This document shows positions 32,450 through 33,423 of a stretch of DNA of 54,735 nucleotides, in pieces. Position numbers and translations under genes: made by a program. The notes beneath the pieces are model-generated. The model saw nothing but the letters and a program-made list of their open reading frames with translations. It was not told where the DNA came from and searched no databases. Source of the DNA: Candidatus Nanopelagicales bacterium (GTDB lineage: Bacteria > Actinomycetota > Actinomycetes > S36-B12). The DNA is taken from NCBI GenBank assembly GCA_041689915.1, contig JBDNFH010000055.1:1-54735 (forward strand), read 5' to 3'. Positions within the stretch are counted from its first letter, which is position 1, and every line of letters begins with the position of its first letter.

Positions 32450-33121
32450 ATGAAGCAAATCAAGCCCACTGCCATTGTCTATGTCGATGGTTTTAATCTT
32501 TATAAAGGCCAACTTCAAAAACGTCCCGGCAATAAATGGCTTGACTTAGTTTCACTATTTGACAGTCTGCTGGTGGATCATGAAGTACTGAGGGTTCACT
32601 ACTTCACGGCGCGAATCCTTGGTCGATTAAATCCTGAAGATCCGAAGGCTCCGAATCGTCAAGATAATTACATTAGGGCTCTGAAAAGCTTGGATCGAAT
32701 CACGGTGCATGACGACTCCCGCTTCGCGATCCATCCCGGTCATGCACGCGAATATATTAATGGGAAAGAAACGCCTCCATACACATGGCATTCGGTCTAC
32801 AAGATTCAAGAGAAAGGTTCTGATGTCAAGTTAGCATCGCAATTGCTATTAGATGCTTTTGATAATCTTGCCGATACATACGTGATTGTAAGCAACGATT
32901 CTGATTTAGCTAAGCCGATAGAAATCGTGAAACTGCGATTTGGCGCCAAAGTTGGGGCGGTGTATCCGCGTGATCAACGAACGAGTCACTTCGTGAAGGC
33001 CGGCATTGATTGGGAAATCTTCCTTCACCCAGCGTTGGCGGAGGCTCATCAGTTGCCCAACCCCATTCCCCGCGCAAGGGGCAAGATCATTAAGAGGCCG
33101 GAACAGTGGGTCAAAGAATGA
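32450..33121 (+). CDS. NYN domain (LabA/DUF88, PIN-like) ribonuclease
   Basis: Intact acidic motifs YVDGFN, EKGSDV, SNDSDL; lower GC than the flanking genes; TTGCTG-N17-CATCAT-N6-ATG. Confidence 0.88.
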   Translation: MKQIKPTAIVYVDGFNLYKGQLQKRPGNKWLDLVSLFDSLLVDHEVLRVHYFTARILGRLNPEDPKAPNRQDNYIRALKSLDRITVHDDSRFAIHPGHAREYINGKETPPYTWHSVYKIQEKGSDVKLASQLLLDAFDNLADTYVIVSNDSDLAKPIEIVKLRFGAKVGAVYPRDQRTSHFVKAGIDWEIFLHPALAEAHQLPNPIPRARGKIIKRPEQWVKE

Positions 33122-33176
33122 AGCAGGGCCTCGCCTAAGCGAGGCCCTGAGCCTGTCCTAAAGGAGCAGGTGTTGT
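33118..33176 (-). ncRNA. Putative NYN-associated small RNA, copy 1
   Basis: Predicted TSS 33176: ACAACA, bulged hairpin CCUG(C)UCC-UUUA-GGACAGG, CU, 11-bp hairpin CAGGGCCUCGC-UUAG-GCGAGGCCCUG, pyrimidine-rich tail. Confidence 0.65.
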
Positions 33177-33182
33177 GAGAAA

Positions 33183-33212
33183 ATTGTAAAGCACCTTCTC
33201 CCAATATGTCAA
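33183..33212 (-). promoter_or_regulatory. Sigma70-type promoter for sRNA copy 1
   Basis: TTGACA (33212-33207), N18, TACAAT (33188-33183). Confidence 0.75.
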
Positions 33213-33248
33213 TTTTAAGTTTTACGATTTAGGTGCGAGAGCTGCCGG

Positions 33249-33326
33249 GAATTGCTGGACGTGATTCACCGAGCAAAGGGTAATCCAATGAGAAGACCAG
33301 AAAAATGGAGCAAGAATATTGGTTAG
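33249..33326 (+). pseudogene. C-terminal remnant of a second NYN gene
   Basis: ELLDVIHRAKGNPMRRPEKWSKNIG* aligns without gaps to the NYN tail QLPNPIPRARGKIIKRPEQWVKE* (9 of 20 identical). Confidence 0.7.
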
Positions 33327-33331
33327 GGGAT

Positions 33332-33388
33332 AAAAGCAGGGCCTCGCTTAGGCGAGGCCCTGAGCCTGTCCAAAGGATCAGGGGGTGT
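33332..33388 (-). ncRNA. Putative NYN-associated small RNA, copy 2
   Basis: Predicted TSS 33388: ACACCC, CCUG(A)UCC-UUU-GGACAGG, CU, CAGGGCCUCGC-CUAA-GCGAGGCCCUG, CUUUU. Confidence 0.65.
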
Positions 33389-33394
33389 CTATAA

Positions 33395-33423
33395 ACAGTA
33401 GCGCACGATTATGCAAATATCAA
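33395..33423 (-). promoter_or_regulatory. Sigma70-type promoter for sRNA copy 2
   Basis: TTGATA (33423-33418), N17, TACTGT (33400-33395). Confidence 0.7.

Follow-up and report, generated by a model that had tools for sequence, protein, structure and literature searches.

An islet inserted in the window (the whole 54,735-nt stretch of DNA analysed here) carries a gene for a NYN-domain protein and, on the opposite strand, a ~60-nt RNA element made of two hairpins. The element has conserved structure and positioned promoter and terminator signals, is almost constantly linked to homologues of this NYN gene, and travels with them on plasmids and in prophages. The chances seem about even that this RNA serves the NYN RNase as a type III-like antitoxin or as a partner. 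A little short of even is the stronger proposal that the NYN protein, which belongs to the PADLOC HEC-09 family, and the ~60-nt RNA make up a new class of toxin–antitoxin or abortive-infection system spread over many phyla, in which the RNA directly silences the RNase, and which is set apart by a PIN-like fold, a single self-terminating RNA unit and a permuted gene order.

A NYN gene in an inserted islet

The islet lies between two convergent conserved genes (Table 1). In most same-genus relatives the same slot holds just ~14–60 bp (blastn with 31701–34300), and in the islet-less relatives this comparison found no hairpin of the element type between the flank genes. An ABC permease gene occupies the slot in one relative (L009), and a NYN gene does so in four metagenome relatives (L161–L164). 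NYN is patchily distributed: the first scan of relatives matched the gene in the window's own genome and in one other, G010, where the contig stops within the gene so that its 3′ side is unreadable. The GC content across the NYN gene is 0.44–0.49, versus 0.52–0.54 in the flanks, which together with the Pfam match below bears out the original prediction of a NYN gene in a lower-GC islet.

Table 1. Features of the islet and its surroundings (positions in the window).
Feature	Coordinates	Strand	Remarks
Upstream flank gene	31758..32414	+	Weakly Fic/DOC-like (Pfam Fic E 0.0013, under the curated cutoff); kept in relatives; outside the module
Inserted islet	32403..33478		Delimited by blastn of 31701–34300 against relatives' loci
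NYN nuclease gene (predicted activity), 223 aa	32450..33121	+	ATG 32450, TGA 33119–33121; alternative in-frame TTG 32444
Small RNA gene, copy 1 (predicted)	33112..33176	-	Predicted start A 33176; P1 33152–33170; P2 (terminator) 33124–33149; U-rich tail 33112–33123
Promoter-like site, copy 1	33183..33212	-	TTGACA-18-TACAAT, then 6 nt to A; 11/12 consensus; geometry as in homologous loci
Remnant of ancestral NYN C-terminus	33234..33326	+	~27–30 codons, stop TAG 33324–33326; non-coding now
Small RNA gene, copy 2 (predicted)	33325..33388	-	Predicted start A 33388; P1 33365–33382; P2 33337–33362; U-rich tail 33325–33336
Promoter-like site, copy 2	33395..33423	-	TTGATA-17-TACTGT, then 6 nt to A; read from the sequence; under the scanner threshold
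Downstream flank gene	33478..34260	-	HAD-family hydrolase (Pfam HAD E 1.6e-33); kept in relatives; outside the module

The sole Pfam match of the protein at E ≤ 0.01 was NYN (PF01936; E 6e-9, 37 bits, the cutoff being 24.2), and the PADLOC HEC-09 profile (PDLC04163) matched it at E 8e-36 over profile positions 5–202 of 203. Residues D13, E121, D125, D150 and D152 are invariant across 25 homologues. The AF2 model (pLDDT 86) has as its nearest solved folds 2qip and the NYN domain of MARF1, the latter with Foldseek E-values of 9e-6 to 1e-4. NCBIfam has no family for the protein, and a PDB search by sequence gave nothing under E 0.2; the first homologue search returned 5530 relatives. Bacterial NYN (PF01936) proteins are listed as being of unknown function in the passages of a PIN-superfamily survey that deal with them (PMC5499597).

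Two copies of a small RNA element

The window contains one direct-repeat family, 33121–33161 and 33334–33374, whose members are 93% identical and 213 nt apart. Each marks one copy of the element. The window has two occurrences of the hairpin pattern that the copies share, whereas 100 shuffles give an expectation of 0.00. In a 67-column minus-strand alignment the copies differ at four sites within a 47-nt core, namely a bulge base and, in the loops, one indel and two substitutions. None of the four touches a paired position, as originally described; with 11 of the 47 positions unpaired, the probability that four differences would all land on these is ~0.002 by hand calculation. The two-hairpin folds of copies 1 and 2 have energies of −33.1 and −30.6 kcal/mol (z −5.0 and −5.2), equalled by 0 of 200 shuffles. 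The plus strand folds equally well, so the strand is not decidable from folding alone.

The predicted promoter sequences are present ahead of both copies. That of copy 1 is weak evidence by itself because the scan gave 3 promoter-like sites against 2.7 expected; the start of this copy was predicted from homologues, by their conserved A and the position of their −10 box. The ‘gcTACnnT’ form found at the copy 2 promoter recurs ahead of the element in actinobacterial homologues. On the minus strand, P2 of both copies was called terminator-like, and the U-rich tail of copy 1 overlaps the NYN stop codon.

The element is not a repeat scattered through the genome. Apart from the two copies, none was found in the window's own genome (245 contigs, 90.7% complete) by a pattern search allowing ≤3 mismatches or by the covariance model, with 150 of 619 candidates scored. 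Nor did any Rfam 15 family reach its gathering score in 32000–34000: the only matches were istR at 25.5 bits (45 needed) and RsmY at 21.7 bits (57 needed), and both identities were rejected as far under threshold. In 20 homologous loci, tRNAs alone reached threshold. A literature search, partly swamped by unrelated matches, found no published description of the element.

Recurrence beside NYN homologues

A covariance model built solely from the window's two copies (R1), and hence fully independent of the homologous loci, found full-length elements adjoining NYN in 43 of 80 such loci. A refined model (R2) found the element in 77 of the 80, at E < 0.001 in 73; as the training set of R2 comprised 45 elements drawn from 42 of these loci, ~35 of its matches are independent. 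R2 scores copies 1 and 2 at 44.8 bits (E 2.5e-10) and 51.7 bits (E 2.3e-12). Two of the three loci missed by R2 are truncated by contig ends, and the third has a weak 9.7-bit copy upstream on the same strand. No protein-coding neighbour other than NYN is conserved across the 80 loci. NYN homologues thus bear the motif, as the original prediction had expected, and the other checks it proposed that can be run by computation likewise came out in its favour.

The linkage extends beyond this set. Of 9 elements in five other whole genomes, 7 adjoin a NYN gene. Within a 151-genome sample of the class, the element stands at 6 of 7 tested NYN places outside the window; a scan of the same sample for the RNA itself (33 candidates scored per genome, stricter filters) found it in at least 4 of the 151 genomes. 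In viral contigs the RNA is present at 17 of 26 NYN loci, the other nine having no match at E ≤ 0.1. One further NYN locus (L127) gave no match even with filters off. NYN loci without a match mostly carry more distant NYNs. A G010 hairpin with 1 mismatch to the stem pattern was set aside as an ordinary terminator between unrelated genes. Altogether the element ranges over at least 11 phylum-level groups.

Gene order varies. Among the 77 loci with R2 matches, the element lies upstream on the same strand in 43, downstream on the opposite strand in 33 and upstream on the opposite strand in 1. Over all sets of loci analysed, a divergent placement was seen at seven. The convergent arrangement claimed for the window therefore stands there and in the 33 loci of its type, but not as a general rule. 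The upstream layout is that of Gram-negative bacteria and Chloroflexota; the convergent layout is that of Actinomycetota, including the window. In the convergent layout the RNA tail overlaps the NYN stop, at offsets of −14 to +20 in most loci. In upstream loci the U-tail ends ~14–20 nt ahead of the NYN start codon, which leaves no room for another promoter. A ToxIN-like order with the RNA upstream, thought to be lacking, is thus present in other phyla, with the terminator just before the NYN start.

Covariation, strand and transcription signals

Both stems covary. In 47 elements aligned with MAFFT, paired cells make up 89.3%, versus 72.1% in shuffled alignments, none of 500 shuffles being as high. 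Double-change cells number 190 against 68 expected, and the covariation score is 0.524 compared with ≤0.20 when the partners are slid. Compensatory changes occur in 15 of 19 pairs and in both helices, including 6 of 9 pairs of P1, the hairpin that is not a terminator. The stems contain 140 G-U pairs versus 20 A-C pairs, an excess which indicates an RNA made from one strand.

Signals on the strand originally chosen, the minus strand in the window, hold fixed positions. A TANNNT box precedes the conserved A by 5–8 nt in 58 of 84 elements, whereas at a control offset it is found in 0 of 84; a TTGACA-like box accompanies it in 28 of the 58. In 75 of 84, at least four U fall within 9 nt after P2. 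Conserved nucleotides lie in the base of P1 and the 5′ tail; the single-stranded part is just ~5 nt.

Origin of the second copy

The DNA between the two copies holds a remnant of a NYN C-terminus. An HMM from the NYN alignment matches it in frame at positions 194–220 (E 2.6e-4, small search), and it is collinear with the C-terminal coding sequence of L161–L164, to which it is nearer than is the present gene's own end. Because this remnant sits between the copies, the repeat unit is a NYN 3′ end plus an RNA gene. Close relatives of the window locus have one element copy. Judged by these alignments, copy 2 belongs to the displaced ancestral NYN 3′ end: a mosaic or partial duplication in the window may have displaced the old 3′ end, its RNA gene staying behind as the second copy. 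The idea that the window holds two independent modules was dropped in favour of such a mosaic or partial duplication once L161–L164 had been aligned, and the view of the copies as a designed pair did not survive. Two adjoining RNA units occur in one viral locus only. At eight loci with extra RNA copies, no NYN remnant was detected beside them at E ≤ 1.

The RNA and the protein can part company. RNA genes without NYN occur at three loci besides copy 2 of the window, which is expected if the RNA is harmless alone. Conversely, the close relative L163 encodes a NYN protein identical to that of L164, and a 77-bp deletion in L163 has taken the RNA promoter, 5′ tail and P1. Since L163 keeps NYN without the RNA, loss of the RNA there is not obviously lethal; this would not follow if NYN is silent or if another copy of the RNA supplies it in trans.

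Proposed action of the RNA and alternatives to it

The islet may be read as a two-part mobile module, in which the gene of a stand-alone NYN (PIN-like) ribonuclease is joined by a dedicated gene for a small RNA of ~60 nt. The RNA would be transcribed from its own promoter, starting at the conserved A, with a 5′ tail of 4–5 nt; P1, of 7–9 bp with a C-rich base and usually a UUCG loop, would be followed by a 2–3-nt linker and then by P2 and the U-tail, which would serve as the RNA's intrinsic terminator. Acting in trans, the RNA would bind and antagonise the NYN protein as an RNA antitoxin, much as in type III toxin–antitoxin and abortive-infection systems, an excess of RNA keeping a potentially toxic RNase silent. 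A fall in RNA supply—through module loss, transcription shut-off or phage infection—would be the trigger that lets the RNase cut cellular or phage RNA. In the upstream layout, NYN would be transcribed only by read-through of the RNA terminator, giving an excess of RNA over protein; in the convergent layout of Actinomycetota the RNA hairpin would also close the NYN gene. Several points count against this reading: the RNA has a compact, very stable fold, where the classical model calls for a labile antitoxin, and is a single unit, not a processed repeat array; HEC-09 gave no protection in published phage tests; L163 keeps NYN after loss of the RNA; and some NYN loci have no match to the element.

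A different reading, which we consider unlikely, is that the RNA controls NYN expression: upstream as an attenuating leader, downstream as a convergent antisense RNA acting through type I-like decay of the mRNA 3′ end or through transcriptional interference, with NYN perhaps feeding back by cutting. The upstream element and its terminator would indeed form the NYN 5′ leader, with the start codon within ~20 nt, and the overlap of the convergent RNA tail with the NYN stop means that a NYN transcript running past its stop would be complementary to the RNA; the lack of a U-tail behind the hairpins on the plus strand of the window is in keeping with this reading. The three layouts, however, share the same promoter and terminator geometry, and the divergent one puts the RNA neither in nor opposite a coding region, so that no single cis mechanism fits all of them. 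Moreover, the stem sequences covary freely, which means that no fixed antisense target is conserved in them. In duplexes between the 5′ half of the RNA and the NYN start region, cognate pairs were no better than others at 74 loci (centred mean +0.63 kcal/mol, one-sided p 0.98), a crude test because start regions in the upstream layout contain part of the element; pairing of the C-rich 5′ part with the NYN translation start is accordingly unsupported.

Slightly less probable again is that the RNA is not an inhibitor at all but a positive partner of NYN, whether cofactor, scaffold, guide, specificity subunit or dedicated substrate. Such a role would suit the tight pairing of one RNA gene with one NYN gene, no second partner being conserved, and protein-bound RNAs typically have a compact stable structure of this kind, with conserved nucleotides in the 5′ tail and at the base of P1. 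In the published phage assays HEC-09 by itself showed no activity (10.1101/2024.01.29.577857), and the L163 locus, with its intact NYN ORF and lost RNA, is easier to understand if NYN is harmless without the RNA. Counting against a positive role, orphan RNA genes persist without NYN, the upstream layout yields an RNA excess via the terminator—a design known from RNA antitoxins—and the freely varying stems and short single-stranded part offer no obvious guide segment.

That the elements lack any RNA function of their own, being bidirectional terminators, a REP-like repeat or a DNA recombination site that the insertion left behind, is very improbable and largely refuted. P2 does score as an intrinsic terminator, copy 2 lies ~90 nt beyond the HAD gene stop on the same strand, an element stands at the end of the inserted islet and both strands fold equally well. 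But the genome has only the two copies, P1 covaries, the −10 box and start A are positioned, the G-U excess marks an RNA from one strand, the 43 upstream elements terminate no gene, and no hairpin of this kind separates the flank genes in relatives that lack the islet. An attC-like recombination site was dropped on the promoter, strand and layout results.

Comparison with known systems

Like the type III systems ToxIN, CptIN and TenpIN, the antitoxin reading joins the gene of an endoribonuclease (for NYN, a predicted activity) to a gene for a small structured non-coding RNA, and both kinds of pair occur on plasmids and prophages. ToxIN consists of repeats followed by a terminator, and its order of promoter, RNA, intrinsic terminator and nuclease gene is shared by 43 of the 80 NYN loci; the window is convergent instead. 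The differences are several. The putative toxin has a NYN/PIN-like fold and does not belong to the ToxN/CptN/TenpN family. In type III systems the RNA is a tandem array cut by the toxin, whereas here it is one self-terminating unit of two hairpins; even the two units in the window, 213 nt apart, each have a promoter-like site and terminator of their own. Finally, the gene order of the NYN pair is free (convergent, upstream or divergent), unlike that of type III systems, and inhibition by the RNA is the part of the likeness that we infer.

Type I toxins are small membrane peptides whose RNAs act by base-pairing. In TxpA/RatA of Bacillus subtilis the RNA is convergent with a 3′ overlap, as in the window, but the window encodes a 223-aa nuclease and not a small peptide, and the same RNA is found in overlap-free layouts. 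Among eukaryotic proteins, MARF1 has its catalytic fold in common with the window NYN, and Regnase-1 is a NYN/PIN-like RNase that recognises stem-loops, so the idea of a stem-loop RNA ligand is shared with the NYN–RNA pair; these eukaryotic RNases, however, are multi-domain factors of mRNA decay and lack a partner RNA gene of their own.

AbiF (Abi_2) of a Clostridioides difficile prophage comes nearest to the pair in its logic. As described in the relevant passages of that study, this RNase-like prophage and plasmid toxin is neutralised, in cis and in trans, by the adjacent non-repeat structured RNA RCd22 (abiF-motif) through direct RNA–protein contact (PMC12373285). AbiF belongs to an Abi_2/HEPN-like family and not to the NYN family, and the RNAs are unrelated, the abiF Rfam family scoring under its gathering threshold; the NYN pair, for its part, is known from sequence alone.

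Defence context, mobility and significance

By its full-length profile match the window NYN is of the same protein family as HEC-09, in which Payne et al. recognise a MARF1-like NYN domain and three conserved aspartates, and which they find embedded in Hma defence systems (10.1101/2024.01.29.577857). They treat it as a single-gene candidate, and the terms ‘non-coding’ and ‘ncRNA’ are absent from the main text; the passages on the assays report no protection against any phage tested and are silent on whether the RNA was in the clone (10.1101/2024.01.29.577857). The novelty claimed for the system thus holds for the RNA element, undescribed in the literature searched, but not for the protein, already named as a defence candidate. 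The window NYN lies outside any Hma or other defence system, its neighbours being the Fic-like and HAD hydrolase genes that are conserved in islet-less relatives.

A dedicated partner RNA would give this NYN clade a concrete, testable mechanism, and it suggests a reason for the negative result with HEC-09 as a single gene. The RNA would form a new family, and NYN may be the fourth protein fold among RNA-antitoxin systems. The covariance model also annotates a small gene that present annotation overlooks in at least 11 phylum-level groups.

Mobility is evident from the records in which the pair is found. In a Mycobacterium abscessus prophage the NYN–RNA pair lies near an integrase and a repressor. 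NYN homologues occur in 71 plasmid records, many of 3.4–5.4 kb. Three of these records were checked: a Klebsiella plasmid gave a match to the terminator hairpin only, and the element is present in the other two, a Phaeobacter plasmid and a 3.46-kb E. coli plasmid. The presence of the pair on the latter makes the key experiments simple in laboratory strains.

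The NYN gene and its locus

The NYN gene is intact (223 codons), and its product matches the Pfam NYN family (E 6e-9, above the curated cutoff) and, across its full length, the PADLOC profile for the defence candidate HEC-09 (E 8e-36). Its closest solved folds are 2qip and the NYN domain of MARF1 (AF2 model, pLDDT 86), and it has 5530 relatives at E ≤ 0.001. In the accessible text of the HEC-09 paper, the protein is a MARF1-like NYN protein embedded in Hma defence systems that gave no protection against the phages tested, and the words 'non-coding' and 'ncRNA' are absent (Payne et al., 10.1101/2024.01.29.577857). 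The accessible part of a PIN-superfamily survey lists the PF01936 groups as function unknown (PMC5499597).

In most same-genus relatives the flanking genes, one weakly Fic-like and one encoding a HAD hydrolase, are convergent and almost touch. Alignments of these relatives to the window stop at 32392-32406 and restart at 33479-33497; the segment between is therefore an insertion (see table). The content of this slot varies within the genus: one relative, G021, has a 302-aa ABC-transporter permease gene there instead of NYN. Another, G010 (L005/L026), has an orthologous NYN gene at 79% identity on a contig that ends inside the gene, ~70 bp short of the expected start of the RNA element; assembly may have broken off there at a repeated element. 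NYN also occupies the window's slot in four metagenome contigs (L161-L164), with 78-80% nucleotide identity over the region. By eye, a TANNNT-like box often lies just 6-10 nt ahead of the NYN start codon in actinobacterial (D-type) loci; together with the window's own upstream sequence, this suggests that these NYN mRNAs are leaderless.

Locations of the features discussed (the window unless a locus is named)
Feature	Location	Strand	Remark
Insertion	32403-33478		
Sequence ahead of NYN	32415-32449		CATCAT 6 nt ahead of ATG
NYN gene	32450-33121	+	
RNA copy 1	33112-33176	-	
RNA copy 2	33325-33388	-	
Repeats	33121-33161; 33334-33374		93% identical
TAG stop of frame between copies	33324-33326		
Permease gene (G021)	L009:583-1491		
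Orphan RNAs	L111:1501-1565; L118:1501-1567; L121:1501-1574		74, 41 and 32 bits
E. coli plasmid pKMi006_5	L131:1967-2167		
K. pneumoniae 4.6-kb plasmid	L132:1500-1725		Repeats and terminator
IMG/VR tandem units	L140:1348-1480		35.8 and 59.4 bits
Deletion variant and its intact counterpart	L163:2170-2260; L164:2170-2340		
Second RNA copies	L032:3479-3548; L039:4209-4280; L083:2293-2363; L104:650-714; L047:3288-3362		0.2-1.8 kb from NYN-RNA pair

Two copies of a two-hairpin element in the window

A ~50-nt element abuts the NYN stop codon directly, and a second copy lies 213 nt beyond the first. On the minus strand both copies have a bulged hairpin of 7 bp (P1), which two unpaired bases separate from an 11-bp G+C-rich, terminator-like hairpin (P2) followed by a pyrimidine-rich tail; this stem pattern occurs twice in the window against 0.00 expected (100 shuffles). 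Over the 47-nt core the copies differ at a bulge, one loop indel and two loop substitutions, none of them paired, and by our own arithmetic the probability that all four differences fall in unpaired positions is ~0.002. Promoter-like sites precede both copies (TTGACA-18-TACAAT, with 11 of 12 consensus matches, for copy 1; TTGATA-17-TACTGT for copy 2), with an A 6 nt beyond the -10 box in each. Coordinates, repeats and alignment agree with the original prediction in its account of the copies, their unpaired differences, promoters and geometry. By itself the promoter scan is a weak signal, being at background level (3 sites vs 2.7 expected), as is folding for the choice of strand, the plus strand folding as well as the minus strand. 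Neither the pattern nor the covariance model found a third copy in the window's own assembly (245 contigs, 90.7% complete), so the element is not dispersed through its genome.

The element is an RNA gene linked to NYN

Homologous loci came from a scan of species-representative genomes, the best 80 of the 544 confirmed being used. A covariance model built from the window's two copies only (R1) gave full-length matches adjoining the NYN gene in 43/80 loci, and the closest relatives (63, 57 and 49 bits) already had compensatory stem changes. A refined model (R2) was trained on 47 elements aligned with MAFFT, of which 45 came from 42 loci and the other two from the window; L103, which duplicates L101, was excluded, as were a doubtful second match in L050 and every partial reverse-strand row. 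R2 matched 77/80 loci at E ≤ 1 and 73 at E < 0.001, with ~35 matches in loci outside the training set. Two of the three loci missed are truncated by contig ends, and the third (L045) has a weak copy in the upstream position (9.7 bits, filters off). NYN homologues thus carry the motif, and we regard the RNA family and its linkage to NYN as well supported.

Three layouts were seen with R2. The element lies upstream on the same strand, ending 0-59 nt ahead of the protein match, in 43 loci; downstream on the opposite strand in 33, where, as in the window, it overlaps the stop or follows it closely; and upstream on the opposite strand in one. On the protein tree the convergent layout is almost wholly that of Actinomycetota, and the upstream layout that of Pseudomonadota, Chloroflexota, Gemmatimonadota, Acidobacteriota and others; at least four layout changes are needed, of which well-supported branches force just one. 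No other protein-coding neighbour is conserved, the largest cluster (8/80 loci, NYN and shadow frames set aside) being a generic ABC ATPase. Five other genomes hold nine elements, seven adjoining an NYN gene, including three NYN-RNA pairs in one Chloroflexota genome, and two orphans. In a class sample of 151 genomes the NYN clade occurred in seven (G058 left out of the analysis), with the element, in several cases divergent, at 6/7 tested NYN places outside the window; the NYN of G099 had none, and G092 had one orphan RNA. Near three orphans (L111, L118, L121) we detected no NYN gene or remnant.

The MAFFT alignment was not fitted to any structure, and from it RNAalifold predicted both hairpins, with compensatory changes in 12/15 pairs. 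In the 19-pair structure 89.3% of cells were paired, vs 72.1% in shuffles (0/500 as high); double changes occupied 190 cells vs 68 expected; and the covariation score was 0.524 vs ≤0.20 with slid partners, 6/9 pairs of P1 and 9/10 of P2 covarying. In a model-fitted alignment of 85 full-length rows the stems held 140 G-U and 20 A-C pairs, pointing to selection at the level of RNA from the modelled strand. Conservation is highest at an A near the 5' end (81/85), in the C-rich 5' strand at the foot of P1 and the G residues it pairs with, and in a UUCG loop on P1 (~70/85). A TANNNT box ends 5-8 nt before the conserved A in 58/84 elements, vs 0/84 at a control offset, and in 28 of these 58 a TTGACA-like box accompanies it at 16-19 nt; at least four U occur in the first 9 nt past P2 in 75/84. 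The element is thus a self-contained promoter-to-terminator gene, with a predicted RNA of ~60 nt bearing only ~5 unpaired 5' bases. Stem conservation and the minus-strand reading, both in the original prediction, are borne out by the double changes, the G-U excess, and the positioned box and U-tail. Rfam 15, searched with the window region and 20 homologous loci, contained no family that reached threshold.

Plasmids, prophages and viral contigs

Among plasmids, 71 records encode an NYN homologue, many of them 3.4-5.4 kb in size, from Escherichia, Klebsiella, Serratia and Salmonella. The element lies directly upstream of NYN on a 3.46-kb E. coli plasmid (L131; 24 bits, filters off), which has, in addition, a gene annotated as a VbhA-family antitoxin and one for an HTH protein, and is present on a Phaeobacter plasmid. 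The integrase and repressor genes of a Mycobacterium abscessus prophage flank NYN and a convergent element scoring 58.6 bits. Among IMG/VR contigs the element was found at 17/26 NYN loci; at one of them (L140) a single NYN gene is preceded by two complete units in head-to-tail order with 4 nt between them, the sole case of adjoining units. A Klebsiella pneumoniae plasmid (L132) has two ~54-nt direct repeats upstream of NYN, then a strong terminator immediately ahead of the start codon, and R2 matches the terminator only; this may be a diverged, repeat-type partner RNA, nearer to classical type III layouts. Some more distant NYNs show no full match: G099, 9/26 viral loci and the Klebsiella plasmids.

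Possible function of the RNA

The RNA could be the antitoxin of an NYN RNase toxin, possibly with a role in defence, a reading to which we give an even chance. Beyond the conserved RNA gene, the RNA would bind and inhibit NYN, which would be toxic. What stays constant is the adjacency to NYN together with the RNA's own promoter and terminator, and orientation is free: the signature of a trans-acting partner co-inherited with the nuclease. In the upstream layout the NYN start codon lies ~14-20 nt past the U-tail, so that NYN would be made by terminator read-through alone, giving much RNA and little protein; such an excess is a ToxIN-type design. A distribution that is patchy and mobile, multiple copies in one genome, copies that are decayed or orphaned, and the absence of any protein partner also fit. 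On the other hand, the candidate RNA is very stable and single-unit, whereas classical antitoxins are labile and repeat-based. The deletion variant L163 (below) and the more distant NYNs that lack a full match likewise count against this reading. The closest known systems are type III toxin-antitoxins and the AbiF/RCd22 pair (PMC12373285); the logic would be common, but protein fold, RNA and gene order differ. No link of NYN or HEC-09 to a partner RNA was found in the main texts of open-access papers or bioRxiv preprints.

Alternatively, the RNA might act on the expression of NYN, either as an attenuating leader or as a convergent antisense RNA. Taken one layout at a time this is plausible, but it is hard to extend to all three, and a crude duplex comparison gave no cognate signal; we consider it unlikely. 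Somewhat less probable again is a positive role for the RNA, as a cofactor or substrate of NYN; the negative phage tests of HEC-09, as given in that paper's accessible text, are compatible with it. So is L163, a natural 'NYN without RNA' variant: its NYN protein is identical to that of L164, but 77 bp lying between short direct repeats are deleted, and with them the RNA promoter, 5' tail and P1, so that a near-intact P2 is all that is left. The deletion would also fit a harmless or silent NYN, or RNA supplied from elsewhere. A plain terminator or repeat is highly improbable, being excluded by copy number, P1 covariation, promoter position and the upstream layouts.

Origin of the second copy

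The frame between the window's copies matches NYN-family HMM positions 194-220 (E 2.6e-4, small search). This remnant and copy 2 are collinear with the C-terminal coding sequence, RNA element and promoter region of L161-L164, and the last ~20 codons of the present NYN gene are a more divergent version, indicating that a ~213-bp piece, bringing a new C-terminal end, copy 1 and its promoter, was inserted ahead of the ancestral NYN 3' end. It may have arrived via recombination with another allele or by partial duplication. L161, L162 and L164 each have a single RNA gene; given this and the ancestral remnant, the window's two copies reflect history, not design. Though a relic, copy 2 retains an intact structure and its promoter-like site. 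Five other loci also have second RNA copies, with no NYN remnants detected beside them, so the window is not alone in having additional RNA copies.
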